This document shows positions 19,969-58,336 of a DNA stretch of 64,000 nucleotides, in pieces. The DNA lies in assembly GCF_003594875.1 (NCBI RefSeq), contig NZ_QZEY01000015.1:1-64000 (forward strand), in the 5' to 3' direction. The notes under the pieces were generated by a model. The model worked only from the letters and a program-made list of their open reading frames with translations. It was not told where the DNA came from and searched no databases. The stretch is from Bailinhaonella thermotolerans. GTDB taxonomy: Bacteria > Actinomycetota > Actinomycetes > Streptosporangiales > Streptosporangiaceae. A program made the position numbers and the translations under genes. The first letter of the stretch is position 1; each line of letters starts with the position of its first letter.

Positions 19969-20004
19969 CGCGCGGCGGCCACGGGCGGGATGGAGAGGGA
20001 GCGG

Positions 20005-20100
20005 ATGGGATGGCCCGGTGGGCGTGATGGCCGGCCGGGCGTGATGGGTGGCCGGGTGTGATGGCTGGGCGGATGTGACGACGGAGCGGGTGTGATGACG
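20005..20100. repeat. Degenerate ~16-bp tandem repeats (GGCCGGGYGTGATGG-like x5) immediately upstream of the hydrolase start
   Basis: cccggtgggcgtgatgg / ccggccgggcgtgatggg / tggccgggtgtgatgg / ctgggcggatgtgacg / gcgggtgtgatgacgg. The last unit contains the ATGATG start. Confidence 0.6.
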
Positions 20101-21695: not shown

Positions 21696-21806
21696 TTTAT
21701 CCAGACATTTCCAAATCGACTAAAAAGCGCGAAGTGTGCCGAGTTTCGAGATGAAGCATTAAGGAATGCGATGAACGCGACGACCGGCGAATGGAGACGT
21801 GAAACG

Positions 21807-21869
21807 AAGGTGTCCGAAATCGGCTATCGACCGACCGTGGTCCCGGTGCTAACTTCAAGGTGTCCGAAA
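21807..21869. promoter_or_regulatory. Two perfect 13-bp direct repeats AAGGTGTCCGAAA spaced 50 bp apart, upstream of the low-GC small gene
   Basis: Copies at 21807-21819 and 21857-21869 (about five helical turns apart) within a 198-bp AT-rich leader (21697-21894). Confidence 0.5.
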
Positions 21870-21894
21870 AGCCGTCAAGAAAGGGCGGTAAAAC

Positions 21895-22245
21895 ATGGCC
21901 GAAGCCTATTTCGCGTTCACGCAGCACCCGGGCCAGGAATTCGTCTTCAAGCTCACCGACGAAGAGAAGATCGCCCACGCCCGCCGGATCCTGAGCGGTC
22001 AAGAAAAGGATCGCGTCCACGTCCACGGGCGCATCCTGAAGCGGAAGGAGTCCTACAACCCGAACTGGGACTACCATCTCGACCCGGACACCATCCAGTT
22101 CTTCGAGGTCGCCATCGAGGTCTGCGACGCCAATATGCAGTACGTCGAGGACCATCTCGACGAAGCCTGCGGAGCCTTCCTCCCCGGGTGCCACTGGTGC
22201 CCCTGGGATTCCCGCCTGACCCGCGAGGTCAAGCCCAACTCGTAG
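21895..22245 (+). CDS. Small (116 aa) Lys/Glu/Asp-rich, Cys-containing conserved hypothetical protein in a lower-GC pocket
   Basis: ATG with an aagaaagggcgg RBS. MAEAYFAFTQHPGQEFVFKLTDEEKIAHARRILSG...CGAFLPGCHWCPWDSRL. Local GC is clearly lower than flanks but the third-position G/C bias is kept. Confidence 0.65.
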   Translation: MAEAYFAFTQHPGQEFVFKLTDEEKIAHARRILSGQEKDRVHVHGRILKRKESYNPNWDYHLDPDTIQFFEVAIEVCDANMQYVEDHLDEACGAFLPGCHWCPWDSRLTREVKPNS

Positions 22246-22274
22246 CCCCCCGCCCCCTTCCCTTCTTCGGTCCC

Positions 22275-22343
22275 CTCTCTCGCGCCGATCTCGCGGTTTC
22301 AATCACGTCGTGTGCTTGAAGCCGCGAGATCGGCGCGAGAGAG
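22275..22343 (+). terminator. Perfect 22-bp inverted repeat (stem) with 25-nt loop: intrinsic-terminator-like hairpin
   Basis: CTCTCTCGCGCCGATCTCGCGG ...25 nt... CCGCGAGATCGGCGCGAGAGAG. Ends 15 nt before the next SDR ATG. Confidence 0.7.
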
Positions 22344-22357
22344 GGCGGCGGTGGAGT

Positions 22358-24893: not shown

Positions 24894-25649
24894 ATGGGAC
24901 ACGCGCACGCGCACGGACCGGCCAACCGGGGCAGGCGGGTGCTGCGGACCGCCGCGCCGCTGTTCGTCCGCGAACCCGGGACCGGGGCGTACGGCGGGGC
25001 CGTGGTGCTGCACGACGTGTTCGGGGTGACCGAGTACGCCGAGGGGGCGTGCCGCAGGCTGGCGCGCGAGGGATGGATCGCGGTGTCGCCGTACCTCTAC
25101 CACGAGCGCGGCGGACCGGCCTACGAGCCGGCCGAGCCCGCCGAGCGGGAGCGGGCGCGCGGCGAGCTGGCCCGGCTGTCCCCGGAGGACCTGGCGGCCG
25201 ACGTCGAGGGCGCCCTGGCGTACCTCACGGGACGCCGGGGGCTGCGGCGCGCCGTGGTCGTGGGCCTGGAGGCGGGCGGATACCTGGCGACCTGGGCGGC
25301 GACGAGGTTCCCCGAGGTCGCGGCCGTGGCGGCGGTGAGCCCCGCGGGCGTGGGGGCCGCGCCGTGGGAGGGCCTGCCGCCGCTGGAACTGCTGGTTCCC
25401 GACCGGCGCGCGCCCTGGCTCGCGGTGGCCGCGGACGGGGACCCGGGGACGGAGCGGCTGCGGCCGGCCGCGGCGTCGGCGGGGCCGCGCGCGGAGGTGC
25501 GCGTGCTTCCCGGGACGGGCCCGGGGTTCTACCGGGAGGGGGCGCCGGAGCACGATCCCGCGGCGGCCACGACCTGCTGGGACCTCGTCCTCGCCTTCCT
25601 CTCCGAGGCCGAACGCCCACCCGGCGGAACGGCCGACCACGACGGTTGA
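24894..25649 (+). CDS. Dienelactone hydrolase family protein
   Basis: DLH-like alpha/beta hydrolase, 251 aa (VVLHDVFGVTEY...VGLEAGGYLA). Confidence 0.75.
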   Translation: MGHAHAHGPANRGRRVLRTAAPLFVREPGTGAYGGAVVLHDVFGVTEYAEGACRRLAREGWIAVSPYLYHERGGPAYEPAEPAERERARGELARLSPEDLAADVEGALAYLTGRRGLRRAVVVGLEAGGYLATWAATRFPEVAAVAAVSPAGVGAAPWEGLPPLELLVPDRRAPWLAVAADGDPGTERLRPAAASAGPRAEVRVLPGTGPGFYREGAPEHDPAAATTCWDLVLAFLSEAERPPGGTADHDG

Positions 25650-25715
25650 TCGCAGCGGCCGATCTCAGCGGTTGATCCAGCGGCTGGTCGCGACGGCCGA
25701 TCTCAACGGTGTCCA
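25632..25715. promoter_or_regulatory. Array of GATC-containing ~16-bp direct repeats upstream of the MFS transporter gene
   Basis: cggttgatcgcagcgg / ccgatctcagcgg / ttgatccagcgg / ccgatctcaacgg, ending ~20 bp before the 25737 start. Confidence 0.45.
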
Positions 25716-25736: not shown

Positions 25737-27098
25737 GTGCCCATGACCACGGCCGATACCTCCGTAGCCTCGATCGCCGCCCGGCTGGAGCGGCTGCCGA
25801 CCTCGCTCTGGCACCTCAAGGTGCGCACCGTCATCGGGGTCGTGACGTTCTTCGAGGCGTTCGACCAGCTCCTCGTGGCCTCGGCGCTCCCGCTGCTCAC
25901 GCGCGAGTGGGGGCTGACGCCCGGGGACGCGACCGTGGCGATCACCAGCGGCTCGGTGGGCATGCTGGCCGGCGCGCTGGCGGGCGGCTGGCTCGCGGAC
26001 CGCGTGGGGCGGGTCCGGCTGGTCGCGCTGGCGGTGGGGCTGACCGCCGTCACCAGCCTGGCGATCGCGTTCGCGCCCGGATTCGCCGCCTTCGTCCTGC
26101 TGCGGTTCCTGCAGGGTCTCGGGATCGGGGCCGAGGTGCCGGTCGCGGCGACGTACATCAACGAGATCGCCAAGGCGCGGCACCGGGGTCGCTTCGTGCT
26201 GCTGTACGAGCTGGTGTTCCCGGCCGGGCTCACCGCCGCCACGCTGGTGGCGGCCTGGGTGGTGCCGAACCTGGGCTGGCGCGCCATGTTCGTGATCGGC
26301 GCGGTCCCGGCGCTGATGGTGGTGTTCCTGCAGCGCCGGGTGCCGGAGTCGCCGCGCTGGCTGGCCGCGCGGGGGCGGCTGGCGGAGGCGGACCGGGTGC
26401 TCGCCGGGATCGAGCGCGAGGTGGCGCGGGGCGGGACGTTGCCCGCGCCGGTGGTCACGGCGGGCGGCGCGGCGGGCGCGCCGAGCACGCTGCGGGACCT
26501 GTTCGCGGGCGTCTACCTGCGGCGGACGGTGGTCGTGTCGCTGATCTGGTTCTTCGGGTACTTCGTGAACTACGGGATCACCGCGTGGCTGCCCACGCTC
26601 TACGTCCGCGCCGGGCTGCCGCTGGACGAGGCCCTGCGGTACAACCTGGTGACCAGCGCGGCGGGGCTGCTCGGCTGCCTGGTCGCCGCGCTGGTCGTCG
26701 ATCGCGTCGGCCGCCGGTGGTGCCTGGTCACCGGGCTCGCCGGGGCGGCGGTGACGCTGCTCCTGCTGTCGCAGACCGGCGCGCGGACGGGCGGGCAGCT
26801 CGCGGTGTGGGCGTCGGTGGCGGCGCTGTTCGTGTTCGCCACCAACATCACCCTGTATCTGTACGGGCCGGAGCTGTACCCGACGCGCAGCCGCGCCCTC
26901 GGCTCCTCCTTCGGCGGGGCCATGAACCGGCTCGGCGTGATCGTCGGCCCCGTCGTCGTCGGCGCCCTCCTCGCGCGCGGCGCCGGGCTCGGCGCGGTCT
27001 TCGCGGTGCTCGGCGGCGCGGCCCTGCTCGGGGCGGTGGCGGCCCTGTTCGCCGTCGAGACCCGCCATCGCCGCCTGGAGGAGCTGTCTCCCGAGTGA
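25737..27098 (+). CDS. MFS transporter (aromatic-acid/H+ symporter-like, 12 TMS)
   Basis: 12 predicted TM helices. MFS signature loop GWLADRVGR. Last gene of the catabolic operon. Confidence 0.85.
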   Translation: MPMTTADTSVASIAARLERLPTSLWHLKVRTVIGVVTFFEAFDQLLVASALPLLTREWGLTPGDATVAITSGSVGMLAGALAGGWLADRVGRVRLVALAVGLTAVTSLAIAFAPGFAAFVLLRFLQGLGIGAEVPVAATYINEIAKARHRGRFVLLYELVFPAGLTAATLVAAWVVPNLGWRAMFVIGAVPALMVVFLQRRVPESPRWLAARGRLAEADRVLAGIEREVARGGTLPAPVVTAGGAAGAPSTLRDLFAGVYLRRTVVVSLIWFFGYFVNYGITAWLPTLYVRAGLPLDEALRYNLVTSAAGLLGCLVAALVVDRVGRRWCLVTGLAGAAVTLLLLSQTGARTGGQLAVWASVAALFVFATNITLYLYGPELYPTRSRALGSSFGGAMNRLGVIVGPVVVGALLARGAGLGAVFAVLGGAALLGAVAALFAVETRHRRLEELSPE

Positions 27099-27229
27099 TC
27101 GGCGTCACGTCCGGGGACTATCGGCGTCACCGCCGGGGGCGATCGGCGTCACGTCCGGGGACTATCGGCATCACGTCCGGGGGCGATCGGCGTCACGTCC
27201 GGGGACGATCGGCGTCACGGCCAGGGGGC
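27098..27229. repeat. 6 x 22-bp perfect-register tandem repeat (ATCGGCGTCACGTCCGGGGRCK), iteron-like, with alternating variants
   Basis: Units at 27098, 27120, 27142, 27164, 27186 and 27208. Odd and even units differ consistently, suggesting a 44-bp higher-order unit x3. Starts at the MFS stop codon and overlaps the 3' end of the convergent minus-strand gene. Confidence 0.85.
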
Positions 27230-30284: not shown

Positions 30285-30297
30285 CCGGCCGGTGAGG

Positions 30298-31206
30298 TCA
30301 CCGCGAGAGGACGGCCTCGGCGATCATCACCTGGCTCGGGTGCATCTCGCGCTCGCCGTCCGCGACGTCCCACAGCGTGTTCTGGAGCGCCCGGCCGAGG
30401 GTCCAGCCCGCCGCGCGCTCCCGGTCCAGCCCCATCACCTCGGTCATCAGGTCGAACCGCCGCAGCACGCGCGCCGGGTCGCCCGTCTCGGCCGTCTCGT
30501 CCCAGAGGTCGCCGAGCGCGGGCATCAGGTCGAACCCGGGGTCCCCGGCGAGCGGGTTCGGGTCGATGGCCAGCCACGGCTCCCGCTCCCCGGCCAGCAC
30601 GTTCTTGTGGTGCAGGTCCCAGTGGAGCAGCCGGTCCCCGGACTCGGGCAGCAGCTCCCGCACCGCGCCCGCGCACATCTTCAGCAGGTGCCGGTCCCGC
30701 TCGCCGGCCAGCCGCTCCAGCGCCGCCGGCACCTCGCCGAGCATGTCCGCCGCCACGTCCGCCAGCCTGCGCATGCCGGGCGGGGCGGGGTGGGCGTGCA
30801 GCCGTACGAGCATCTCGGCGATGATCCGCGCCTCCTCGGCCTCGTCCCCGAGGACCGACAGCGGACGGGTGAAGTCCAGCCGCTCCAGCAGCATCGCCCC
30901 GGCCACGGGGTCGTCGGCGAGCAGCCGCACGGCGCCCCGCCCGTCCCAGATCCGCAGCGCGTCGTAGGACCCGGCGCTCTCCTCGTTCACCGGCTGGATC
31001 TTCAGCGCCGCCGGCGTCCCGTCCTCCCGCGTCACGGGGAGCACCAGCCCGGCGTACCCGTGCATCGCGTCCCCGTCGATCCGCAGCCCCCACTCGCCGA
31101 GGAACCGCTCCACGAGCCCCGGGACCGTCGCGATCCACGCCGGTCCCCCGTCCTCCGGCCCGTACTCCGCGTGCCGCGCCGCCAGCCCCTCCGGAACCGA
31201 GATCAT
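30298..31206 (-). CDS. Aminoglycoside phosphotransferase, APH(6)/streptomycin-6-kinase-like family
   Basis: Brenner motif LLHWDLHHKNVL and DxxxxxD (AIDPNPLAGDPGFD). 302 aa, typical for APH(6). Confidence 0.8.
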   Translation of the reverse strand: MISVPEGLAARHAEYGPEDGGPAWIATVPGLVERFLGEWGLRIDGDAMHGYAGLVLPVTREDGTPAALKIQPVNEESAGSYDALRIWDGRGAVRLLADDPVAGAMLLERLDFTRPLSVLGDEAEEARIIAEMLVRLHAHPAPPGMRRLADVAADMLGEVPAALERLAGERDRHLLKMCAGAVRELLPESGDRLLHWDLHHKNVLAGEREPWLAIDPNPLAGDPGFDLMPALGDLWDETAETGDPARVLRRFDLMTEVMGLDRERAAGWTLGRALQNTLWDVADGEREMHPSQVMIAEAVLSR

Positions 31207-31825
31207 TTCCCGAGGCTACCCATCCGCCCTGTGTGTCCGCTTCCGATTTTCTCCTCCGCCGGGGCGGTGGCGGCTGTACGGCTGACGCGGGGTCGGGCAC
31301 CCGAATCGCCGGTGTCGGCGCGGACCCCTTCGGGCAGTCCGCCTCGGGGTGAAGCGGCCCCGGCTCGCCTGGCTGCCCGTTCCCGGCGCCAGGCCGAAAG
31401 CCTCGGGACCGGTCCCACCCGCGTCCTCACCCGATCCCCGGCACCTCGGGCCGAGCGCCGGTGCTCACCTATCGCCGCCCCGGCCCTGGCCCCGACACCT
31501 CGGGCGGGACCGTCGCCGTGGCGTGTCGTGCCGCCTCCCCTCGCTCAGCCCGCTTCCCCTCCTCGTGCCGTGATCTCGCGATCCCGCCCCATCCTCGGCT
31601 CCTCCCGGCGCCTCGGGTGGAGCCGGCGCCAGGGTGGAACTGCAAGATCACGGCTGGGGGATGGGGCCTGCGCCGTCCTCGCGTGGGGTCATATGTGGGG
31701 CGGGATCGCGAGATCACGGCCAGGAGGGGGTGGCGCCTGCGCCGCCCTCACCTCGGGTCGTGTGCGGGGTGGGACCGCATGATCACGGTCAGGAGGCGCG
31801 CCCCACGCGTGAGGATGGGCCGGGG
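31207..31825. repeat. 620-bp repeat-rich non-coding spacer containing a MITE-like element copy and tandem partial copies
   Basis: Element copy at 31568-31654 with imperfect terminal IRs (ccgtgatctcgcgatcccgcc / ggtggaactgcaagatcacgg), followed by two ~72-bp tandem partial units each ending ...gatcacggYcaggagg. Upstream, degenerate cctcggg/ggcgcc segments. Confidence 0.7.
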
Positions 31826-33304
31826 TCAGGGGGTGCCGAACCAGCGGGTCAGGGCCGCCTGGAGACGGGACGGGCGGTCGCCCAGCCAGGCGACGTGGCC
31901 GTCGGGGCGGATCAGGAGGGCGTCCGCGCCCAGGGGGCTCTCGGACACGGCGGTGACGATGGCGACGCGCTCGGACCAGGGGGCGGCGGCGTCGCGGAGG
32001 TCGGGGCGGTCGGCGAGGTCGAGGAGGATGGGGAAGGCCGGGCGGAGGAGGTCGGCGAGCCGGTGGGTCTGGTCGCCGACCTTGAGCGCGGCGTTCGGGG
32101 CCAGGTGCCCGGCGCCGGGGACGCCGACGTCGTACCGGATGTCGAGCCCGCTGATCATGTTGCCGAGGTAGGCGTTGACCTCGTCGAGATGCATCAGGTC
32201 GGTGAACAGCTCGCGGAGGGGGTCCACCGAGGGGTCCGGGTTCATCAGGGCCATCTGGGCGCTGACGTTCCACAGCACGCGGGCGGCGACCGGGTGCCGC
32301 TCGGAGTGGTAGGTGTCCAGCAGCCCCGGCGGAGCCCACCCGTTGACCTCGGCGGCGAGCTTCCAGCCCAGGTTGAACGCGTCCTGCAGGCCGGTGTTGA
32401 CGCCCTGCCCGCCCGCCGGGAAGTGCACGTGCGCGGCGTCCCCCGCGAGCAGGACCCGCCCCTTCCGGTACACCTCGGCCTGCAGCGCGGCGTCGCCGTA
32501 CCGCGTGAGCTGGGCGGGGTCGGTCATGCGGACGGGGAACCCGGCGATGCGCTCGACGCTCGCCCGCAGCTCGTCCAGCGTGACGGGCGCCCGGCGGTCG
32601 GCGTGCGGCCCGCTCCAGTCGTACGTCGAGACGCGGCTGAGCCCCGCGGGGTGCACGTAGAACTGGACCCAGCCGCGCGGCGTGCGGGTCCAGCCCCAGG
32701 GCACGTCGTACGGGTCGAGCAGCCGCACGTCGCCCATCAGCGCCGCCACCGTCGCGCCCTTGCCGGCGAAGGGGATCCCGGCGAGCTTGCGCGTGGCGGA
32801 GCGCGCCCCGTCCGCGCCGACGACCCACGACGCGGTGAGGGTGTACCGGCCGTCGGGCCCGGCGATCTCCAGGGCGACGTGGTCGCCCCGGTCGTCGAGG
32901 CCGACGAGTTCGTGCCCGCGCCGGACCTCGGCCCCCAGCGAGGTCGCGCGCTCGAAGAAGACGTGCTCGGCCCACGCCTGCGGCGCGCCCACGTGCGCGG
33001 GCCCCTCCAGGTCGAGCTTGGCCAGGTCCAGGTCGAACATCAGCCCGAAGTGGAACGCGAACGGCCGGTCCGGCGGCCTCCGGTCGACCCGCCGCCCGCC
33101 GATCCCGCCCACCGCGTCGAGCAGCCCGCGCCGTTCCAGCATCTGCGCCGTGCGGGCGTGCAGCGTGCCCGCCTTCGACTGCCACGTGGGCTCGGGCAGC
33201 CGCTCCAGCACCACCGGCCGGACCCCCTGCAAGGTCAGCTCCGCCGCCAGCAGCATGCCCACGGGCCCGCCGCCCACGATGGCGACGCCGTACTCGACAC
33301 TCAT
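31826..33304 (-). CDS. FAD-dependent aromatic-ring monooxygenase (PHBH-fold, PheA/TfdB/Rox-like)
   Basis: GxGxxG (VAIVGGGPVGMLLA), DG motif (VVGADGARS), GD motif (LLAGDAAHVHFPAGGQGVNTGLQDAFNL). Confidence 0.85.
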   Translation of the reverse strand: MSVEYGVAIVGGGPVGMLLAAELTLQGVRPVVLERLPEPTWQSKAGTLHARTAQMLERRGLLDAVGGIGGRRVDRRPPDRPFAFHFGLMFDLDLAKLDLEGPAHVGAPQAWAEHVFFERATSLGAEVRRGHELVGLDDRGDHVALEIAGPDGRYTLTASWVVGADGARSATRKLAGIPFAGKGATVAALMGDVRLLDPYDVPWGWTRTPRGWVQFYVHPAGLSRVSTYDWSGPHADRRAPVTLDELRASVERIAGFPVRMTDPAQLTRYGDAALQAEVYRKGRVLLAGDAAHVHFPAGGQGVNTGLQDAFNLGWKLAAEVNGWAPPGLLDTYHSERHPVAARVLWNVSAQMALMNPDPSVDPLRELFTDLMHLDEVNAYLGNMISGLDIRYDVGVPGAGHLAPNAALKVGDQTHRLADLLRPAFPILLDLADRPDLRDAAAPWSERVAIVTAVSESPLGADALLIRPDGHVAWLGDRPSRLQAALTRWFGTP

Positions 33305-33795
33305 CTCTTTCCCCTCACCAGGCCGGGCCTTCCGTCCCAGGAACCCCGGCCGCCCCCCGCGCGTTGCGCCGGCCGTCGGTACGGCGGGCCGCGCCGGGCC
33401 GGGGGCCGGAAGTCATGGGACCCTTCGCGGAGTTGTCACGACTGTCCGGGAAGGACGCAATTTCGATCGTACGTAAACAGTCGTACAAAGCCGCCCTCCT
33501 GTCAAAGCGGCGCCGGCCGCCCCCGTCGCCGGCGGCCCGAGGCCGTACGGCGGGAGGCGTGGCGGGAGGCGGCCGTTCCCGGACGGGTCCGGAAGGGTCC
33601 CAGCGCTTCCCGGCGGTTCTGGAGGTTCTGGGAGGTTCCTGGAGGTTCCGGGAGGTGGAACGGCCGGGTTCCGCGCGGCGGAACGAGGCGTGGTTTCCGG
33701 GGCCCGGGTGGCACAGGCTGCGCAGCAACTCGCGCGGGAGTGCCGCGCGGGACGCGCGCGGAGCGCTCCCCCCGCCCGCGCCGAGAAAGGCTGCG

Positions 33796-35589
33796 ATGAT
33801 GCGAAACCGTCTCCGCCGCGCCGTGGCGACGTCGAGCGCCGGCGTGTTCCTGCTGGCCATGGGCGCGCAGGCGACATCGGCCCAGGCCGCGCCCGCCGAC
33901 TCCCACATCCCCTCCGCCTGCGGCGACCGCCGTCCGCAGGAGGCGGACCCCGGGTCGTACGGCATGCAGCTCGACGGGTCGTTCCGGCATCCGGGACTGA
34001 CCCCGGCGGGGGAGGAGCGGCACTCCTTCCCCGGCGGCGCGCGGGACCTCTTCCCCGCGACGAAGGGGTACGACCCCCGGTCGTACACGGAGGGGCCGGT
34101 GAAGGTGGAGGCGGCGTACCGCGGGCCGGACTTCACCCCGGACTACTTCCACACCTGGCAGAACGTGGTGGACTTCGGCGGGCGGCGCTACCTGTTCCAG
34201 TACGACCGCAGCGAGGCCCGCGTCTACGACGTCACCGACGTGCGGAAGGTCACCATCGTCGAACGGCTGAGCCGGAGCGACGTGGACGTGCCGTACGGCG
34301 AGAACCCCGAGCTGCGGGACGGGAAGGACTGGAAGGCGCACGACTACTGGGGCGCCTCGACCATCCAGTGGAACGCCCGGCTCAAGGCGTACGTCATGGT
34401 GCAGAGCTTCGAGCAGAAGCGCCAGGTGGGCGAGCTGGGCGACGCGCCCGGGCGCACCAAGTTCGAGAACCCCGAGGGCGTGGCCAGGCTGCGCGCGACG
34501 CCCGGCCTGAAGGGCTTCAAGGTCTACCGGCTGGACGGGCCGCGCAAGAAGGACTGGAAGCTGCTGTCCACGGTCACCACGGACAGCACGGTCGCGAACC
34601 CGCTGGACTCGCGGCCGGAGAGCACCCCGCAGCAGGGCTCGGGCTCGCTCGACGTGCCGTACTACATCGGCGAGAAGTACCTGTTCCTGGCCGCCGCGCC
34701 GCGTGACGACTGGGGCAACACCGAGGTCCCGACGTACCTCTACTCGGCGGGGTACCAGGCGTGGGACCTGTCGGACCCGGCCAAGCCCCGCAAGCTGGGC
34801 GAATGGCACCGCCCCGGCCAGGTCAGGGGCGAGGAGGCGGAGTACCGCAAGGACCCGCGCTGCGGGAACCGCACCTCCTGGATGGGCGCCCGCATGCCCC
34901 TCTTCTTCCCCAAGCCCGTCGAGCACGGCGGGAAGATCGCCTTCGCGGCCCTCGGCGGCTTCGGCCTGTCCGTCCTGGACGTGTCCGACCCGGCGAACAT
35001 GAAGGAGATCTCGCACCTCTCCCTCCCCATGTCCGTCGGGGGCACGGAGGCGGACAACGTGGACGTCTCCCAGTACGAGCGCACGGGCATGATCTACGTC
35101 AGCGGGTACCCGCTCGGCGAGGACTGCTACGAGCCGTACAAGGACGTCTTCCAGGTCGACGTCAGGGACCCCGCCAGGCCACGCGTCGTCGGCGCGCTCC
35201 CGCGTCCCAAGCCCCCGGCGGGCGCGAAGTTCACCGACTACTGCCAGCGCGGCGGCAGCTTCGGCCCCAAGCGCACCGGCTACTACACCTCCCCAGGCGA
35301 CCCGCGGCAGGGCCTGTTGCCGTACGCCTTCTACAACGCCGGGGTCCAGTTCTACGACGTCCGCGACGTCCGCCGTCCCCGCGTGGCCGCCCAGTTCGTC
35401 CCGCCGGGCTACAGCCCCGCGGTCCCCGACTACGCCCTCGGCAACCAGACCCACGGCATCTACGTCGAGTGGGACCGCAAGATCGTCTGGGTGTTCACCA
35501 ACGACGGCGTCTACGCCCTGTCGTCCCGCCTCCTCGGCCGCCCCAACCTGGAAGCCCCCCGCACCCCCTTCCGCAACAGCGCCCTCTGA
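33796..35589 (+). CDS. Secreted LVIVD-repeat beta-propeller protein
   Basis: Signal peptide MMRNRLRRAVATSSAGVFLLAMGAQATSAQA. Repeated VYDVTDVRK, LDVSDPANMKE, VDVRDPARPRVVG and YDVRDVRRPRVAAQF motifs characteristic of LVIVD repeats. The upstream part of track ORF 33364 is leader. Confidence 0.7.
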   Translation: MMRNRLRRAVATSSAGVFLLAMGAQATSAQAAPADSHIPSACGDRRPQEADPGSYGMQLDGSFRHPGLTPAGEERHSFPGGARDLFPATKGYDPRSYTEGPVKVEAAYRGPDFTPDYFHTWQNVVDFGGRRYLFQYDRSEARVYDVTDVRKVTIVERLSRSDVDVPYGENPELRDGKDWKAHDYWGASTIQWNARLKAYVMVQSFEQKRQVGELGDAPGRTKFENPEGVARLRATPGLKGFKVYRLDGPRKKDWKLLSTVTTDSTVANPLDSRPESTPQQGSGSLDVPYYIGEKYLFLAAAPRDDWGNTEVPTYLYSAGYQAWDLSDPAKPRKLGEWHRPGQVRGEEAEYRKDPRCGNRTSWMGARMPLFFPKPVEHGGKIAFAALGGFGLSVLDVSDPANMKEISHLSLPMSVGGTEADNVDVSQYERTGMIYVSGYPLGEDCYEPYKDVFQVDVRDPARPRVVGALPRPKPPAGAKFTDYCQRGGSFGPKRTGYYTSPGDPRQGLLPYAFYNAGVQFYDVRDVRRPRVAAQFVPPGYSPAVPDYALGNQTHGIYVEWDRKIVWVFTNDGVYALSSRLLGRPNLEAPRTPFRNSAL

Positions 35590-35757
35590 CCCGCCCCGGC
35601 CCGCCGTCCGCACCGTACCGGGGGCCGGCCCGCCGATCCTGTACGGCGGGGCGGCCCGCTCCACCGCGCCCCCCCGCGATGAGCCCTGCGCGAGGGAGCC
35701 CTACGCGATGAACCCCTCGCGAAGGGGCCCCTCGCGCAGGGTCCCCTCCGAAAACCC

Positions 35758-35845
35758 CCCCGTGATCTTGCGATTCCGCGCCCACCCCACACTCCCCGAG
35801 GCCTCGCGTGGTGCCGGCGGCGGTGCGGAATCGCAAGATCACGGG
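35758..35845. repeat. MITE-like 88-bp element with 21-bp near-perfect terminal inverted repeats (CCCGTGATCTTGCGATTCCGC)
   Basis: Left end cccgtgatcttgcgattccgcgcc. Right end ggcggtgcggaatcgcaagatcacggg, whose reverse complement matches 20/20. Interior ccgaggcctcgcgtggtgccggcgg is shared with the copies at 31568 and 40426. Confidence 0.75.
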
Positions 35846-35918
35846 CGAGGGAGTGAGGGGAGCGGGGGCTGCGAGAGGGGCATGGGAGAGGTGCGCAGGG
35901 GGTGCCGGGGCCCGGGGT

Positions 35919-37301
35919 CTAGGGGCGGGCTCCGGCCGGCGCCGCGGGTGGCGAGGGTGCGGGGACCGCTCTGGGGAGGGTGAGGGACAGGAGGGCGGCG
36001 GTCGCGGGGAAGAGGGTGATCACGGCCAGGGACGGGGCGAGGCCCAGGGGGGCCGACAGGGCGGCGGTGAGGGCCGAGGCCGTCGCGCCGCCGGCGAAGA
36101 AGGCGAGGTTGAGCAGCCCCATGCCGCCGCCCCGGGTCGCCGGGGGCAGGTGGGCGGACATGATGGCGGTCACCGCGACCTGGGCGGTGGAGAACGCGGC
36201 GAAGCCCAGCGACGCGGCGGCGATCAGGAGCACGGCCCCGCCCGCCAGCGCCGCCGCCAGGAGGACCGCGGCGAACGCGGCGGCCACGGCCGCCAGCAGT
36301 GTGTTCCTGGCCCGGGGGGAGCGGACCGCGCCGACCGCGCGGGACGCGACCACGCCGACCACCGCGCCGGGGAGCAGCCAGGCCCCGACCGCGAGGACGC
36401 TCATGCCGTGCTCCCTGACGAGGAGCTGGGGCGCGGCGTACATCGTGGCGAACAGCCCGCCGTACACCCCGATGCCCACGGCGGCCGCGACCAGGTAGGG
36501 GCGGTCGCCCACCAGGCGGCGGGGGACGAACCCAGAGGGGACGCGCCGGACGCGCAGGGCCAGGCCCGCCGCCGCGACCACGAACACCGCGCCGACCACG
36601 GCCGCGGCCACGCCGGGCAGGCCCAGCGTGCCCGCCTGGATCAGGATGAGGAACGCCGAGGCGGCCCCCGTGAGCAGGCCCGCGCCGGTGAGGTCCACGC
36701 GCGCGCCCGTGCCCGGCCGTACGGCGAGGCCCGCGCAGAGCGGGGCGGCCAGCAGCGACAGCGCGGGCAGGACCAGGGTGATCCGCCAGGACGCCAGCTC
36801 GGTGACCACGCCGCCCGCGAGGGTCGCCGCCGCCGAGAACACCGCCATCGACGCGCCGAACCCCGCGAGCATGGAGGCCCGCCGCTCCGGCGCGGCCGCC
36901 GCCGTCAGCGCGAGCGCGCACGCCGACATCGCCCCCGATCCGGCCGCGAGCACGAACCGGCCCGCGACCAGTACCCGCAGGTCGGGCGCGACCAGGCAGA
37001 CGACCGTCCCGAGGGCGAGCACGATCGCCCCCGCGGCCAGCGTCCTGCGCACGCCCCAGGCGTCGGACAGCCGCCCGAAGAACGCCGTCCTCAGCCCGAG
37101 CGCGAGCGCGTGCGCCGTCAGCACCCACGCCACCTCGGCGGGCCCGGCCCGCAGCTCCGCGCCCACGTCCGGCAGCGCGACCCCGGCCGCCGTCACCCCG
37201 AACACCGCGGGCCCGAACAGCGCCCCGACCCGCACGCCCGCCGACCGGGCCCCGGCGGGCGCCGCCGCGACGGCCGCGTCCACGGAACTCGCGGAGCTCA
37301 C
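35919..37301 (-). CDS. MFS transporter
   Basis: C-terminal portion of track ORF 35919..38564. About 12 hydrophobic helices. GTG start overlaps the stop of the upstream FAD-oxidase gene (GTGA). Confidence 0.75.
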   Translation of the reverse strand: MSSASSVDAAVAAAPAGARSAGVRVGALFGPAVFGVTAAGVALPDVGAELRAGPAEVAWVLTAHALALGLRTAFFGRLSDAWGVRRTLAAGAIVLALGTVVCLVAPDLRVLVAGRFVLAAGSGAMSACALALTAAAAPERRASMLAGFGASMAVFSAAATLAGGVVTELASWRITLVLPALSLLAAPLCAGLAVRPGTGARVDLTGAGLLTGAASAFLILIQAGTLGLPGVAAAVVGAVFVVAAAGLALRVRRVPSGFVPRRLVGDRPYLVAAAVGIGVYGGLFATMYAAPQLLVREHGMSVLAVGAWLLPGAVVGVVASRAVGAVRSPRARNTLLAAVAAAFAAVLLAAALAGGAVLLIAAASLGFAAFSTAQVAVTAIMSAHLPPATRGGGMGLLNLAFFAGGATASALTAALSAPLGLAPSLAVITLFPATAALLSLTLPRAVPAPSPPAAPAGARP

Positions 37302-38605
37302 AGCTCCCCCTTCCCGGCCGGAAGCGCCGCGGCCCCGGCGAAGACCCCGTCCGGATCGTGCGTGGCCCGCAGTTCCGCGAGCCGGGCCAGCGAGGCCGGG
37401 TCGTACGCCTCCCGGGCGAGCGGCGCCGCCGAGGGCCCGCCGAGGAAGTTGGCGAACCGCAACCCCGTGCTCCAGGGGGCGAGCGCGTCCAGCGGCGCCG
37501 GCTCGGGCGACACCGTGAGCACGGCGTAGGCCGCGTCGCGGTGGCCGAGCGCGCTGTCCTGGCCGGTCCTGCGCGACAGCGCGCCGCCGAGGTGCCGGGC
37601 CGCCGTCACGATCGCGCGGTCGTCCAGGTCGAGCAGGCGCTCGGCCGGCAGGTCGCGCAGCATCAGCGAGGTCTCGTGGTAGGCGTTCGGCTCGGTCGGG
37701 TCGTTGTGGACGTGGGCGACGTCGCCGTACGGCATCTCGCCGACCGCGTCGATGAGCGGCGCGGCGACGGCGCGCAGCGGGCGGACCAGCGCCTCGCCCT
37801 CCATCGCCGAGCCGGTGAACGCCACGGTGACCTGCACGCTCAGCCTCCCGCGCAGCGGCGCGGGCACGCCCTCGGCGTCCGGGAGGCGCAGCAGCGCGAT
37901 CGAGGAGTTCATCTCCTCGGGGACGCCCCCGGTCCACTCCCGCCAGGCCGCGAGCAGGTCCCGCGCCGCGTCGCCCCCGAAGTAGAGCGAGCCGCCGTGG
38001 AGCCGCCGCACCGGCACCAGCCCGAACTCCACCTCGGTGACCACGCCGAAGCCGCCCTTGCCGCCGCCGCGCAGCGCCCAGAACAGGTCGCCGCCGGTCA
38101 CCGTGATCTGCTCGCCCGCCGCCGTGACCAGCTCGAACGCGGTAACGCGGTCCGCCGCCCAGCCGTACGTCCGGCCGAGCACGGGCAGGCCGCCGCCGAG
38201 GGTGTACCCGACCACGCCGACCCGCGGCGACGACCCGTTCAGCGGGGCCAGCCCGTACGCCGCCGCGGCCCGCACGACCTGGTCCCAGCGGGCCCCGGCC
38301 CCGGCACGGGCGGTCCGCCGCACCGGGTCCACGCGGACGCCGTCCATGCGGCGAGTGCTGATCAGCAGGCCGCCGGCGGCGGGGAGGGCACCGCCGTGGC
38401 CGGTCGCCTGCACGGTCACGGGCAGCCCGCGGGCGGCGGCGTGGCGCACGGCCTCCGCGACGTCCCCGGGGCCTGTCGCGCCCACGACGATCTCCGGGCG
38501 GTGCTCGACGGCCAGGTTGAAACCGCTCGTCTCCCGCCGATATCCGTCCTGGCCGGGCGTCCACACCGGACCCCGGACCTGTGGTGACTGCTGGGTCGAT
38601 CTCAT
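37298..38605 (-). CDS. FAD-linked oxidase (PCMH-type FAD-binding domain, BBE/6-hydroxy-D-nicotine-oxidase-like)
   Basis: N-terminal FAD_binding_4 (RPEIVVGATGPGDVAEAVRHAAARGLPVTVQATGHG; GYTLGGGLPVLGRTYG). Start taken at MRSTQQ (38605) because the longer ORF would overlap the LysR box. Confidence 0.8.
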   Translation of the reverse strand: MRSTQQSPQVRGPVWTPGQDGYRRETSGFNLAVEHRPEIVVGATGPGDVAEAVRHAAARGLPVTVQATGHGGALPAAGGLLISTRRMDGVRVDPVRRTARAGAGARWDQVVRAAAAYGLAPLNGSSPRVGVVGYTLGGGLPVLGRTYGWAADRVTAFELVTAAGEQITVTGGDLFWALRGGGKGGFGVVTEVEFGLVPVRRLHGGSLYFGGDAARDLLAAWREWTGGVPEEMNSSIALLRLPDAEGVPAPLRGRLSVQVTVAFTGSAMEGEALVRPLRAVAAPLIDAVGEMPYGDVAHVHNDPTEPNAYHETSLMLRDLPAERLLDLDDRAIVTAARHLGGALSRRTGQDSALGHRDAAYAVLTVSPEPAPLDALAPWSTGLRFANFLGGPSAAPLAREAYDPASLARLAELRATHDPDGVFAGAAALPAGKGEL

Positions 38606-39578: not shown

Positions 39579-40376
39579 GTGCGTATCAGCCTGGCCACCG
39601 AGCCCGCCCGCCCCGGACGGATCAACGAGGACCACGTCGCCGCCACCCCGGACACGATCGTGGTGCTCGACGGCGTGTCGACCCCCGAGGGGTTCCCGCT
39701 CGGCTGCCGCCACGGCACCCCCTGGTACGCCCGCGAGCTGTCCACCGCGATCCTGCGCCACGCCGCGCCTCAGGTCCCGCTCCCGGAGGCCGTGGCCGCC
39801 GCGATCGCCGAGGTCGCCAAGGCCCACGGCCCCGGCTGCGACCTCACCCATCCCGACCAGCCGGCCGCCGCCCTGGCGGTGGTACGGCGGGCCGCCCGCG
39901 CCGTGGAGTACCTCGTCCTCGCCGACTGCGTGGTCGTCCTGGACACCGGCGACGAGGTGGCCGCGATCACCGACGACCGGCTCGCCCGCCTCCCGATCCC
40001 CGAACGCGAGGCCGCCCGCGGCCCCGGCCGGGACCGCGCGGCCGCCGAGGCCCTCATCGCCGCCAAGCGCCCCCTCCGCAACCGCCCCGGCGGCTACTGG
40101 GTGGCCGAACTCGACCCGTCCGCCGCCCACCACGCCGTCACGGGCGCGGCCGAGGGCGTCCGCCGCCTCGCGGTCCTCACCGACGGCGCGTCCTGCCTGG
40201 TGGACGCCTACGCCCGGACGACCTGGCCCGCCCTCCTGGACCTGGCCGAATCCCAGGGCGCGCAGGCGGTGATCGCCGAAGTCCGCCGCGCCGAACTCAC
40301 CGACCCCGCGGGCACCCGCTGGCCGCGCCACAAACCCCACGACGACGCCACCCTCGCCTACGCCCACCTGCCCTGA
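39579..40376 (+). CDS. PP2C-like (PPM-family) phosphatase-domain protein
   Basis: NEDHVAA...IVVLDGVSTPEG and ...VLTDGASCLVD resemble PP2C metal-binding motifs. 14 bp downstream of the LysR stop. Confidence 0.55.
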   Translation: MRISLATEPARPGRINEDHVAATPDTIVVLDGVSTPEGFPLGCRHGTPWYARELSTAILRHAAPQVPLPEAVAAAIAEVAKAHGPGCDLTHPDQPAAALAVVRRAARAVEYLVLADCVVVLDTGDEVAAITDDRLARLPIPEREAARGPGRDRAAAEALIAAKRPLRNRPGGYWVAELDPSAAHHAVTGAAEGVRRLAVLTDGASCLVDAYARTTWPALLDLAESQGAQAVIAEVRRAELTDPAGTRWPRHKPHDDATLAYAHLP

Positions 40377-40425
40377 CCGCCTCCCCCTTCCCTCCCGGCC
40401 CGTGATCCATCCCCGCCCGTGATCT

Positions 40426-40498
40426 TGCGATTCCGCGCCGGCCCCTCACGGGCCGAGGCTTCGGGTGGTGCCGGCGGGGGTGCCGGGCCGCACGATCC
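40426..40498. repeat. Third copy (right end degenerate) of the CCCGTGATCTTGCGATTCCGC MITE-like element
   Basis: Left end cccgtgatcttgcgattccgcgcc is identical to the 35758 copy. Interior ccgaggcttcgggtggtgccggcggg is homologous. The right IR has decayed to ccgcacgatcc. Confidence 0.65.
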
Positions 40499-40536
40499 TG
40501 GAGAGGTTCTTCGCCTTGGCGCGGGGGCGTCGGGGG

Positions 40537-42366
40537 TCAGGAGGTGACGCGGACGTCGTCGACGGCGGATTCGACGAGGGAGGCGGGGTCGGCGTCGGTG
40601 GCCTCTATCTGGAGGCGGATGGTCTGGCCTGCGTAGGGGGTGAGGTCGGCGGTGGCCTGCCGCCAGGTGGCGGGGACCTGGCTGGCGGAGGCGGGGCGGT
40701 CGAGGATCGTCGCCGTCGTCGTGGGGGTGATCACGCGGACGCGGAGGTGGTCGGCCGCCGAGGCGTTGTTCAGGTGGGACAGGTAGTAGGACAGGGTCAG
40801 CGTGGGGCGGGTGCCGGCCGGGAGGGCGATCTCGGGGGAGCGGACGCTGGTGGTGCCGCCGTCCACGTCGCCCGCGCCCGCCGAGGAGCCCGCGGCGCGC
40901 CCGGTGACCAGGGCGTTCGTGCCGCTGACGGTCGTGCCGGACTGGATGGTGGCGCCGTTGTACGTCGTGGGCTCGGGGTCGCCGCGCTCCCAGCGGCCCG
41001 AGGTCGCGGTGTCGGCGCCCGCCGCGTTGACCGTCCAGCCGCGGTCGGACTCGAAGTCGTCGGCGAACAGCGGGGGCGTCGTCGTCCGGGGCGGGAAGCG
41101 CACGACGCGGTCGTCCTCGGGGACCGGGGTGCCGCGGCCGTCGCGGTTGCTCGTCAGGATCCACAGGTGCCCGTCGGGCGCCACGGCCACGTGCCGCAGC
41201 CTGCCGTACGTCCCGTTGAGGACGGAGTCGGGGGTGCCCGCGCCGCCGGAGCCGGTCAGCGGGACGCGCCAGAGGCGGGTGCCGCGCAGCGCGGCGGCGA
41301 ACAGGGTGTCGCCGGCGATCGCGGCGCCGCTGGGGGAGGCCTCGGCGGTGGTCCACGTGACGATGGGGTTGCGGAATCGGGGGTCGGTGCCGGTGCCCTC
41401 GACCGTCGGCCAGCCGTAGTTCCCGCCCGCGACGATGTGGTTGACCTCGTCCCAGCGGTTCTGGCCGAACTCGGTGGCGTACATCAGGCCGCGCGCGTCC
41501 CAGGCGAGCCCCTGCACGTTGCGGTGGCCGAGCGTGTAGACGAGCGACCCGCCGGTCGGGTTGTCCGGCGGGACGGTGCCGTCCGGGCGCATGCGCAGGA
41601 TCTTGCCGCCGAGGCTCTGCGGGTTCTGCGCGTTGGCGGTCTGGCCGGCGTCGCCGGTGCCGGCGTAGAGCATCCCGTCGGGGCCGAAGTGGATCCGGCC
41701 GCCGTTGTGGATGCTCGCCTTGGGGATGCCGGACCTGATGACCTGCGGGGTGATCGTGCCGCCGAGGCGGAAGCGCACGACGCGGTTGTCGGCGCTCGCC
41801 GTGAAGTAGGCGTAGACGTACCCGTCCTGGGCGTACGACGGGGACACCGCGATCCCCAGCAGCCCGCCCTCGCCCCCGGGCACGACCCCGGGCACCCGCG
41901 CGACCTCCTGGGCCGCCCCGCCCGGCCGTACCTGGAGGATCCGGCCCGAGTTCCGCTCCGAGACCAGCGCGCTCCCGTCGGGCAGGAACGCCAGCCCCCA
42001 CGGGATGGCCAGGCCGCTCGCCACGACCTCGGGCCGCGTGAAGTCGAAGTCCGCGAGCCGCGCGGACGCCGCCGCGTCCCCGGGCCGCGCGGACGCCGCG
42101 TCCCCGGGCCGCGCGGAGCCGGCCGAGCCCCCCGGCCGGGCGGTCACCGTCGCGGCCGGCACGGCGGAGGCGGGCGGCGTGGCGGCGGGCGGCGCGGCCG
42201 TGCCGCCCGGGGCGGGCGCGTGCGTGGCGCCCGCGGACGCGGTGATCGTGGGCCGGGGTACGGCGGGGCCGCCCGCGACCTCGCCGTGGGCGGGGGAGGA
42301 GAGGGCGGCCGGGGCGGCCAGGGCCAGGATGGCGGTCACGACCGGCGTCAGGCGGGGCTTCATGCG
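40537..42366 (-). CDS. Secreted PQQ-dependent soluble sugar/aldose dehydrogenase (YliI/sGDH-like beta-propeller) with C-terminal extra domain
   Basis: Signal peptide MKPRLTPVVTAILALAAPAALSS. sGDH motifs GLAFLPDGSALVSER..., HNGGRIHFGPDGMLY, GHRNVQGLAWD. Confidence 0.8.
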   Translation of the reverse strand, partial: RMKPRLTPVVTAILALAAPAALSSPAHGEVAGGPAVPRPTITASAGATHAPAPGGTAAPPAATPPASAVPAATVTARPGGSAGSARPGDAASARPGDAAASARLADFDFTRPEVVASGLAIPWGLAFLPDGSALVSERNSGRILQVRPGGAAQEVARVPGVVPGGEGGLLGIAVSPSYAQDGYVYAYFTASADNRVVRFRLGGTITPQVIRSGIPKASIHNGGRIHFGPDGMLYAGTGDAGQTANAQNPQSLGGKILRMRPDGTVPPDNPTGGSLVYTLGHRNVQGLAWDARGLMYATEFGQNRWDEVNHIVAGGNYGWPTVEGTGTDPRFRNPIVTWTTAEASPSGAAIAGDTLFAAALRGTRLWRVPLTGSGGAGTPDSVLNGTYGRLRHVAVAPDGHLWILTSNRDGRGTPVPEDDRVVRFPPRTTTPPLFADDFESDRGWTVNAAGADTATSGRWERGDPEPTTYNGATIQSGTTVSGTNALVTGRAAGSSAGAGDVDGGTTSVRSPEIALPAGTRPTLTLSYYLSHLNNASAADHLRVRVITPTTTATILDRPASASQVPATWRQATADLTPYAGQTIRLQIEATDADPASLVESAVDDVRVTS

Positions 42367-44757: not shown

Positions 44758-45306
44758 GTGAGCGTCTTCACCACCCACACCGTCGAGACCGCCCCCGCCG
44801 AGGCGCGCGCCGGGCTCGACGCCATCGCCCGCAAGCAGGGCTTCCTCCCCGAGGCCGCAGCCCGCATGGCCGAGTCGCCGCAGGCGCTCAAGGCGTTCCT
44901 GACCGGGCTGTCCATCTTCGCGCAGTCCGGCCTGGAGCCGGTCGAGCGCGAGGTCGTGACCTTCGCCGTGGCCACCCGCACCCGCTGCCACGTCTGCGTC
45001 GCCATGCACACCGGGGTGCTCACCGGGGCGGGCGCCGACCCCGAGCTGATCGCCGCGCTGCGCGCCGGGCGGCCGCTGCCGGACGCCCGCCTGGAGGCCC
45101 TGCGGATCTTCACCCACGCGGTGATGGACCACCACGGCGGCGTGCCCGACGAGGACCTGAAGGCGTTCCTCGACGCCGGCTACACGACCCGCGACTCCCT
45201 CGACGTCGTGCTCGGCGTCGGCGTCTACACCCTGTCCACCTACGCCAACCGCCTCACCGGGGCCGCCGTGGACCCCGCCCTGTCCCGGTTCGCCTGGGAC
45301 GGCTGA
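44758..45306 (+). CDS. Carboxymuconolactone-decarboxylase-family (AhpD-like) protein
   Basis: CMD/AhpD-like helical domain with a Cys/His motif (TRCHVCVAMH). Confidence 0.75.
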   Translation: MSVFTTHTVETAPAEARAGLDAIARKQGFLPEAAARMAESPQALKAFLTGLSIFAQSGLEPVEREVVTFAVATRTRCHVCVAMHTGVLTGAGADPELIAALRAGRPLPDARLEALRIFTHAVMDHHGGVPDEDLKAFLDAGYTTRDSLDVVLGVGVYTLSTYANRLTGAAVDPALSRFAWDG

Positions 45307-45378
45307 CCCGCCCCGCGTCCCGTACGGCGGCGCGGCGGGCGTCGCCGTACCGGACGCGGGCGGAGCGGGGGAGGGCGG

Positions 45379-46245
45379 TCAGGAGTTCTCCGGGATCATG
45401 TCCACGATGCGGATCACGCTGTCGGCCCCGTGGCCCGCCTCGACCGCCCGGCGGATCAGGTCGCGCATCGGGAGCAGGACGTCAGGCCGCAGGCCCAGGG
45501 CCCGGCTGGCCTCGATGAAGTTCGGGAACGCGGTGTCGTTCATGGCCAGGCTGGACACGTCGGTGACGAAGTCCCCCGAGTCCACCTGGGCGGCGGCGGC
45601 CGGCAGGGTCTGGAACATCGCCTGGAGCCACCCGCTGACGTACGGCTCGAACTCGGTCGCGGAGACACCCTCGGCCCTGACCATGGCCAGAGCGTGGGCG
45701 AAACCGCCGTACATGCCGTACATCGCGCTGAGCATGGCCAGGTCGTACAGCGCCGCCCGGCCCGCGTCGTCGCCCAGGTAGCGGGCCTCGGCCAGCACCT
45801 CGAACGTCTCGCGGTACCGCTCGAACGCGTCCGGGTGGCCGCTGTAGAGGATCAGCGCGCCCGGCTTGGCGATCATCTGCGGGACGGCCATGATCCCGCC
45901 GTCCAGGTACTCCGAGCCCGCCGCGAGGGCCTCGGCCTTGCGCGCCTGCTCGGGGGTGCCGTTGGTGAGGTTCACGATCGTGCGGCCCGCGATCGAGCCG
46001 CCGGCCGCCGCGAGCACGTCCTCCACCGAGTCGTGGGTGAGCACGCAGATGATCGTGAGCGGGCCCGCCTCGACGGCCTCGGCCACGGTCGCCGCCTGCT
46101 TCGCGCCCCTGGCGACCAGATCGGCGGCCTTCTCCGGAGTGCGGTTCCACACGGTCGTGGGGTGGCCCGCGTCCAGGAACGCCTGCGCGAGCACCCGGCC
46201 CATCAGCCCCAGGCCGATCACGGTCACGGGAGTCTTGTCGCTCAT
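45379..46245 (-). CDS. NAD(P)-dependent beta-hydroxyacid-dehydrogenase-fold oxidoreductase (imine-reductase-like)
   Basis: N-terminal Rossmann VTVIGLGLMGRVLAQAFLDAGHPTTVWNRT. 6PGDH-like C-terminal helical domain. Start taken at MSDKTPV. Confidence 0.75.
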   Translation of the reverse strand: MSDKTPVTVIGLGLMGRVLAQAFLDAGHPTTVWNRTPEKAADLVARGAKQAATVAEAVEAGPLTIICVLTHDSVEDVLAAAGGSIAGRTIVNLTNGTPEQARKAEALAAGSEYLDGGIMAVPQMIAKPGALILYSGHPDAFERYRETFEVLAEARYLGDDAGRAALYDLAMLSAMYGMYGGFAHALAMVRAEGVSATEFEPYVSGWLQAMFQTLPAAAAQVDSGDFVTDVSSLAMNDTAFPNFIEASRALGLRPDVLLPMRDLIRRAVEAGHGADSVIRIVDMIPENS

Positions 46246-46339
46246 CTTGTACCTCGTCGGATTCGTGGTGGTTCGTTGACGTAGGTCCAGGCTGCGGCGG
46301 GTCACTCCGGATTCACTCAAGGTCGTCTATAGATAGCGT

Positions 46340-58179: not shown

Positions 58180-58336
58180 CCGCCCCGCGAGGTCTCCGCC
58201 GTACGGCGAGGCCCCCGGCTCCGGCCCCGCTCGGGCCGTACGGCCGCGCCCGGGCCGCGCCCGGGTCGGGCCGGGCGCGGGCTCAGGCCGTACGGACGGG
58301 GGAGACGGGACGGGTCCTAGGGAGACGGGACGGGTC

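Follow-up and report, generated by a model that had tools for sequence, protein, structure and literature searches.

Palindromic spacer repeats built from a modular half-unit in a 64-kb stretch of Bailinhaonella DNA

Introduction

Structured spacer repeats are well catalogued in Proteobacteria and Firmicutes. A single REP is an imperfect palindrome of 20-40 nt, REPs carry a GTAG or CGTC tag, and REP/BIME elements act in transcripts as stabilisers or terminators. The BOX elements have an internal module in variable tandem number and are co-transcribed with neighbouring genes. The Correia element of Neisseria has terminal inverted repeats of ~25 nt, and its hairpin in read-through RNA can terminate or process transcripts. 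The ERIC/IRU elements are located in transcribed spacers, their copy number varies widely between lineages and their mode of spread is not known. Among actinobacterial repeats, the MIRUs consist of 40-100-nt units in tandem and lie in spacers that separate co-directional genes.

For high-G+C actinomycetes, only a few catalogued examples of structured spacer repeats are known to us, and we know of no actinomycete family of such small structured repeats. We also found in the literature neither an actinomycete MITE, REP or RAYT family of such kind nor relevant work on Bailinhaonella. A general description of the REP/BIME elements is given in PMC2817692, and the mycobacterial MIRU minisatellites are cited in PMC2267715.

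The window analysed in this work is the whole 64-kb stretch of Bailinhaonella thermotolerans DNA, with a G+C content of about 75%. It contains a family of non-coding palindromic repeats that are restricted to spacers. The repeats are composed of a modular half-unit that occurs both inverted and in direct tandem, and they have strong hairpin potential in two of the three loci.

Results

Identification of the repeat family

The 20-mer CCGTGATCTTGCGATTCCGC was searched with at most 3 mismatches, and six sites were identified in the window compared with 0.02 expected from dinucleotide shuffles. An nhmmer profile was built from the alignment of eight half-units of ~55 nt and was then run on the 64-kb window. 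The same eight copies were recovered with E values of 1.7e-13 to 2.4e-8, and the next-best match had E=0.08. These eight copies of the ~45-nt half-unit occupy three spacers (A, B, and C), and the profile recovered no copy elsewhere in the window. The repeat family with inverted terminal sequences, which had been proposed by a model from the letters alone (the sequence-only reading), is therefore real by both the arm sites and the half-unit profile. That reading listed three copies. Three loci do exist; however, the third starts at 40416-40417 and not at 40426, locus A is no simple copy, and the right arm of C is degenerate. The features of the three loci are shown in Table 1.

Table 1. Coordinates of the repeat elements, their parts, and the neighbouring features in the window.
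Feature	Coordinates	Strand	Description
Sites of the 20-mer CCGTGATCTTGCGATTCCGC	31568, 35760, 40417	+	
Sites of the 20-mer CCGTGATCTTGCGATTCCGC	31653, 31719, 35844	-	
Locus A mosaic	31556-31825		one left arm facing three right arms, these in 66-69-nt direct tandem units
Locus A inner hairpin	31556..31665	.	I2; 52-nt arms, 71% complementary
Left arm of A	31567-31591		
Right arm R1 of A	31634-31653		
Locus A unit U2	31657..31725	-	69 nt; D5, I17, I5; TRF period 69, 2.3 copies
Right arm R2 of A (in U2)	31696-31720		
Locus A unit U3	31726..31794	-	69 nt; 80% identical to U2 (D5, D3, TRF)
Right arm R3 of A (in U3)	31769-31788		
Partial fourth unit of A	31795..31825	-	by-eye resemblance to the linker part of U2/U3 only
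Element B	35759..35845	.	complete palindromic copy; near-perfect 87-nt hairpin
Arms of B	35759-35782 and 35822-35845		inverted repeat I9
Element C	40416..40501	.	D2; 83% identity to B over 86 nt
Left arm of C	40416-40439		intact
Right arm of C	40480-40501		decayed
Tandem duplication at C edge	40389..40424	+	17 nt; TRF period 17, 2.1 copies, 89% matches
Extra partial arm at C	40400-40408		one-mismatch pattern match at 40400
Long mechanical ORFs across repeat loci	31634-33799, 30292-31782, 35808-37529	+	
Long mechanical ORF across a repeat locus	40358-42001	-	
Neighbouring genes			APH(6)-type kinase, FAD monooxygenase, 597-aa protein without Pfam match, MFS transporter
Further neighbouring genes			FAD_binding_4 oxidoreductase, LysR regulator, PP2C-like protein, glucose/sorbosone dehydrogenase

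Architecture of the half-unit

The half-unit consists of a C-rich tract (CCTCC or CCCC), a 20-25-nt arm CCGTGATCTYGCGATYCCGC, and a C-rich inner module that ends in CGAGG, in this order. Two types of inner module were distinguished by eye from the half-unit alignment. Type x reads CCCACCCCACAC-TCCCCGAGG, also given as CCCACACAC..CCCGAGG, and is found in four half-units: B_L, C_L, and, when small indels are allowed, A_R2 and A_R3. Type y reads CGCCGGCACCACSCGAGG, also given as CGCCGGCNCCACSCGAGG, and is present in B_R, C_R, and A_R1, with A_L close to it. Both B and C are built of arm-x followed by the complement of arm-y, which gives an imperfect palindrome of ~85 nt. This ~85-nt hairpin unit of two inverted half-units is present in B, in C, and in the core of locus A, where half-units with a linker also occur as direct tandem copies of 66-69 nt.

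The arms begin with (C)CCGTGATC, and the two ends of element B are CCGTGATC and GATCACGG. Homology between the copies stops sharply at CCGTGATC, and the sequence common to the loci is the element only and not the flanking genes (D2, 86 nt; D6, 58 nt). The arm is invariant over 20-24 nt in B_L, B_R, and C_L and over 25 nt in A_L and A_R2. Two of 20 arm positions distinguish A from B and C. The interiors drift more than the arms; when half-units of A and B are compared, most pairs share no more than 6-9 of 23 interior positions. The internal core CCGAGGCYTCGSGTGGTGCCGGCGG, which had been described as shared by all three copies, is exact in B and C but only approximate in A, where it reads CCGGCGCCTCGGGTGGAGCCGGCGC.

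Element B

The terminal inverted repeats of element B had been read as matching at 20 of 20 positions. They match at all 21 outer bases, and the full arms of 24 nt are 96% complementary. The interior is imperfectly paired with the apex at CGAGGCCTCG. On the + strand, the element folds as RNA at -60.4 kcal/mol (z -8.2). The value for the - strand is -66.6 kcal/mol (z -7.6), and the stem on this strand is followed by the U-run GGGGGGGUUUUCGG. The element is flanked by the stop codon of a + strand gene at 35589 and that of the - strand MFS gene at 35919.

Two further structures are located in the same spacer. A separate palindrome lies immediately upstream of element B at 35684-35741 (25-nt arms, 88% complementary; -50.2 kcal/mol, z -8.4). 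It is composed of 15-nt CCCCTCGCGAAGGGG-like units, and no other copy of its motif was found in the window. A third small hairpin is present at 35622-35657.

Locus A

In the inner hairpin of locus A, the left arm, a GGCTCC...GGAGCC stem, and the right arm R1 follow each other, and R1 has 3 mismatches to the 20-mer. The RNA fold of this hairpin has -57.7 kcal/mol on the + strand and -65.2 kcal/mol on the - strand. The left arm has several mismatches to the nearer R1 but is complementary to R2 at 25 of 25 positions. When the whole spacer is folded, the structure of lowest energy has the left arm paired with R2 and not with R1, and the stem formed by the left arm and R2 is extended by the flanks CCCCCTCCTGG and CACGAGGAGGGG. 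The third right arm, R3, reads CCGTGATCATGCGGTCCCAC on the - strand. The partial fourth unit lies directly next to the FAD monooxygenase gene, at its stop codon (31826-31828). The order on the - strand after this stop codon is the partial linker, U3, U2 (arm-x-linker), and the arm-y / y'-arm' hairpin.

A CRISPR array was also considered for the arms of locus A with their 66-69-nt period and was rejected. The arms are only 17-20 of 25 identical, the stretches between the arms are 80% identical, and no cas domains were found among the about 50 genes of the window.

Element C

The left arm of element C is identical to that of B over 24 nt, with C_L and B_L matching at 23 of 25 arm positions in the half-unit alignment, and the interior is B-like. 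The folding of the element is no better than that of shuffled sequence (z=0.04 and -0.49). The hairpin is lost in C, so that not all copies have kept the structure. The tandem duplication at its edge is a repeat of CCCGTGATC, with which the left arm starts. The element is located between the stop codon of the + strand PP2C-like gene at 40376 and that of the - strand GSDH gene at 40537.

Hairpin potential and covariation of the arms

Both A and B exhibit strong hairpin potential on either strand (-58 to -67 kcal/mol, z -5.7 to -8.2 against shuffled sequences), and their stems are retained in the folds of the whole spacers. The structure prediction that had been suggested for read-through transcripts gives hairpin potential for A and B but not for C. 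The half-unit at 35752-35800 alone does not fold (-4.6 kcal/mol, z -1.2), and neither do the tandem units U2 and U3 alone (z -1.7 and -0.75).

The copies vary inside, but each intact locus has kept its arms complementary. The paired arms of A (L and R2) both have C at arm positions 10, 16, and 21. The arms of B have T in both at positions 10 and 16, and G and A at position 21. Pairing has therefore been kept even though the sequence changed. When the three full elements were analysed with RNAalifold, two further pairs, in the interior, were found to have changed on both sides (columns 36/81 and 48/69). The covariation term of +1.68 is not favourable, and with three sequences only, the statistics are weak. 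The covariation of the arms matches a pairing constraint, and it fits equally a foldback or template-switch origin or an intra-element conversion that keeps the arms identical.

Genomic position and neighbouring genes

The frame plots of third-position GC and the GC3-based gene call place every copy in non-coding DNA, in agreement with the intergenic position given by the sequence-only reading. The non-coding share of the window is roughly 13%, so that three independent loci would all fall in spacers with p about 0.002. Both B and C are located between convergent stop codons and A is located between two co-directional - strand genes, while none of the 10 divergent spacers in the window has a copy. 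Every locus is at gene 3' ends, with the stems 37-170 nt from stop codons. The other convergent spacers in the window have unrelated hairpins or tandem repeats, which puts the family in a niche where terminator-like structures are expected.

The G+C-rich stem-loop downstream of a stop codon that is expected of an intrinsic terminator is present. The U-run after the stem was identified only in B on the - strand and not in A and C, and none of the three elements was flagged by a consensus terminator scan. The role of U-less hairpins as terminators in actinomycetes is debated.

The long mechanical ORFs that run across the repeat loci on non-coding frames are listed in Table 1, and one of them translates the 69-nt units as DHGQEGVAPAPP... 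No clear coding signal was found by the frame plots in the three repeat spacers. Such ORFs could be mis-annotated as genes, and the repeats flag three spacers of this kind together with likely transcript ends.

All copies are located within 31.5-40.5 kb and none was found in the other 55 kb of the window. The clustering of the three loci within 9 kb of 64 kb has p about 0.04-0.05 by arithmetic. Such clustering and the short distances to stop codons are compatible with ordinary terminator or 3'-UTR stabiliser hairpins at gene ends. Their shared sequence would then come from local duplication or conversion within these 9 kb, and neither a genome-wide family nor mobility would be involved. The spacers here also readily make tandem duplications, including the 17-nt one at the C edge. 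However, the clustering is only marginally significant, and a 22-nt solo arm in a spacer of Streptosporangium vulgare, described below, may indicate that the motif predates this part of the genome. Since the flanks are unrelated and the element alone is shared, simple segmental duplication is excluded and a short-patch transfer would still be required. We consider such a purely local origin rather unlikely.

The neighbouring genes are ordinary accessory genes, and the three loci bracket two blocks of them (4.2 and 4.6 kb, with 2-4 genes of mixed orientation in each). This bracketing would suit an arm that is itself the functional site, either bound by a protein (a nucleoid-associated protein or a regulator) or used for recombination in the manner of attC, with the hairpin being secondary. 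The arm is invariant in several copies while the interiors drift, and C keeps a perfect left arm despite its lost hairpin. However, two of the three loci are between convergent stop codons and not near promoters, a position that also disfavours an operator site, and the arm has no internal dyad symmetry (half-unit fold z -1.2). Integron attC was rejected because the ends lack RYYYAAC/GTTRRRY and are unlike attC cores, blocks of 2-4 genes in mixed orientation are unlike integron cassettes, and no integrase or recombinase was found in the window. A protein-binding or recombination site as the primary role appears quite improbable.

Other structured spacers and genes in the window

A near-perfect hairpin at 22273-22345 (34-nt arms, 94% complementary, 5-nt loop; -76.8 kcal/mol, z -12.6) is located just after a gene without Pfam match at 21897-22245, which itself follows a spacer of 50% G+C at 21696-21896. 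The best alignment in the window for its left arm with flank (CCCCTCTCTCGCGCCGATCTCGCG) is A_L, with a score of 31 compared with a background maximum of 25. Membership of this hairpin in the family was considered, but its right arm is not above background, and the hairpin is at most a putative member. Another hairpin at 45312-45360 (22-nt arms, 91% complementary) has a sequence unrelated to the repeat family. The genes 44758-45306 and 45379-46305 on either side of it are convergent, and it takes up the 72-nt spacer that separates them.

Many spacers in the window have short tandem repeats of their own, which are located at 27097-27229, 13114-13219, 10063-10166, 20001-20097, 25628-25709, and 58300-58344 with periods of 22/44, 37, 12, 17, 13, and 20 nt, respectively. 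Several of them are between convergent genes, and spacer repeats seem to be unusually abundant in this genome.

The region 578-7832 of the window encodes on the - strand a 1702-aa protein, in which DUF3686 ('ATPase involved in DNA repair'), DUF7902, and AAA domains were identified, and after it a 688-aa protein without Pfam match. The two look like a two-gene module of unassigned role.

Mobility tests and searches in other sequences

Five definitions of the element were examined with boundary offsets of -4 to +4, and no flanking direct repeat of at least 3 nt was found at any boundary. Only 2-nt flanking matches are present; they are trivial and follow from the palindrome itself. The Pfam search of about 50 genes in the window identified no transposase, integrase, Y1/RAYT, or cas domains. 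Neither the target-site duplications nor the transposase with matching inverted repeats for which the sequence-only reading had proposed a search were found in the 64-kb window, and the collections scanned contain no insertion sequence bounded by the arms. Since neither target-site duplications nor, in the window, a partner enzyme were found, any mobility of the family is putative.

The scan for the arm pattern gave 12 single hits among 185,579 representative species genomes, 18 among the JGI metagenomes, and 1 among viral contigs. The hits are mostly from unrelated taxa, and no paired arms or extended similarity was found among them. With loci A and B as blastn queries, only short chance matches or none were obtained from plasmids and phages, and the six-frame translation of the element used as a protein query gave no match at E<=10.

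A MITE, that is, a deletion derivative of an insertion sequence that is moved in trans with the arms as the terminal inverted repeats bound by the transposase, has to be weighed against these results. It would agree with a family that is non-coding and multi-copy, with elements of ~85 nt that have no coding capacity, with the perfect terminal inverted repeats of 21-24 nt in B, with arms far better conserved than the interior, and with the sharp end of homology between copies. However, neither a duplication of at least 3 nt, nor a transposase in the 64 kb, nor a two-arm locus in the public collections scanned was found. The single arms in the direct tandem units of locus A are not predicted by cut-and-paste transposition with terminal inverted repeats. 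The arm variants also co-vary between loci, which is better explained by a structural constraint than by a single transposase that binds them. A true MITE is therefore judged unlikely.

The Rfam search gave nothing at the gathering threshold, and a relaxed scan gave only microRNA-precursor models below the threshold. The very stable RNA hairpins might suggest that each element is an sRNA gene that has its own promoter and acts in trans. However, no promoter-like site was found between 30 and 43 kb, no Rfam family was assigned, and the microRNA-precursor models score any long hairpin. The element is also symmetric on both strands with a poorly conserved interior, and we regard sRNA genes at these loci as very hard to credit.

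The two proteins of the window that were used as queries are 100% identical to proteins of B. thermotolerans, a member of the Streptosporangiaceae, and their next-best homologues have an identity of only 71% and 53%. A search with an AfsR/SARP-type regulator for paralogues on other Bailinhaonella contigs gave only the regulator itself. About 53 kb was sampled from Actinomadura, Streptosporangium roseum, and S. vulgare, and neither family members nor comparably perfect spacer hairpins were found there. A solo match, CCCGTGATCTCGCGATCCCGCC, was identified in a spacer of S. vulgare JCM 3028, where 22 nt are identical to the A-type arm. It is located at 3846-3867 of an 8-kb segment, where it is preceded by five CGCGTTCCC repeats of 9 nt each and followed by a C-rich tract, and no inverted partner was found in this segment. 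The match may be meaningful; S. vulgare also belongs to the Streptosporangiaceae, and ~0.08 chance hits were estimated among the genomes of this taxon.

Discussion

Of the readings offered from the letters alone (a MITE, a REP-like palindrome, or a protein-binding module), the MITE lost ground with the missing duplication and transposase, and protein binding is disfavoured by position. The REP-like one is favoured in the form of a REP/BIME/BOX-like mosaic. Because the half-element is the repeat unit and also occurs in direct tandem, a mosaic of REP/BIME or BOX type is preferred over a classical transposon with terminal inverted repeats. With modest confidence, we lean towards a lineage-restricted mosaic palindromic repeat of the REP/BIME/BOX/MITE class, with stems that would act as barriers or protectors and with spread by copy-and-paste or conversion. 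Judging by the collections scanned, the family seems confined to its lineage.

The mosaic repeat would act when a flanking gene is transcribed and the element in the transcript adopts a stem whose predicted energy of -58 to -67 kcal/mol makes it very stable. The stem could stop read-through or block 3'-to-5' exonucleases, as REP, ERIC, BOX, and Correia elements do. By analogy with these elements, the probable role of the hairpins at gene ends is to terminate or protect the transcripts. The copies would have arisen from copy-and-paste (mobilisation in trans) or from recombination or gene conversion rather than from independent evolution.

A more radical reading is also conceivable, although we hold it to be improbable. 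The repeats may form an undescribed family of structured repeats in Streptosporangiaceae that spreads without a RAYT or a transposase for terminal inverted repeats, or the arms may be recombination sites that delimit the accessory-gene blocks. Hairpin-templated copying is a candidate mechanism for such spread and could also yield the direct tandem half-units. If the arms were recombination sites, the solo arm of S. vulgare would be a remnant in a sister genus.

Small structured repeats in spacers influence where transcripts end, how stable the mRNA is, and how genomes rearrange. If abundant in Bailinhaonella, this family would provide a clear case from actinomycetes, unusual in its modular build (an arm with alternative inner modules, arranged both inverted and in direct tandem), and a convenient marker for strain typing. 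The kind of element is ordinary for bacteria and opens no long-standing question.

Comparison with known systems

The mosaic repeat favoured here shares features with several of the described systems. Like the Correia element and bacterial MITEs, it is ~100 nt or less, non-coding, and bounded by terminal inverted repeats. Unlike the Correia element and most MITEs, target-site duplications and a parent insertion-sequence family were not found here. Like the ERIC/IRU elements of Enterobacteria, the repeats are imperfect palindromes of ~100 nt in spacers, but they have no sequence similarity to them and the host belongs to a different phylum. The 66-69-nt tandem units of locus A between co-directional genes resemble the MIRUs. 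However, the MIRUs are neither palindromic nor arranged in inverted pairs, and loci B and C have no tandem units.

The likeness to the REP/BIME/REPIN elements of Enterobacteria and Pseudomonas comprises the non-coding repeats confined to spacers at gene 3' ends, the inverted pairs that make a long hairpin, and the mosaic clusters with linker motifs. In contrast to a REP, a single half-unit forms no fold by itself, neither GTAG nor CGTC is present at the foot of the stem, and the host is an actinomycete. No RAYT was found among the about 50 genes of the window, and the units of locus A are in direct tandem, unlike the BIMEs with their strictly alternating orientations. Because the REP features and the MITE duplication fail, the family is filed only under the broad class of small structured intergenic repeats. 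The BOX elements of Streptococcus pneumoniae exhibit a similar modular build, end modules that pair into a stem, and a similar location in spacers. They differ in having no sequence relationship to the repeats described here and in belonging to a different phylum, and the tandem module of the present family carries the arm. By analogy, the element would work most like the REP/BIME and BOX elements.
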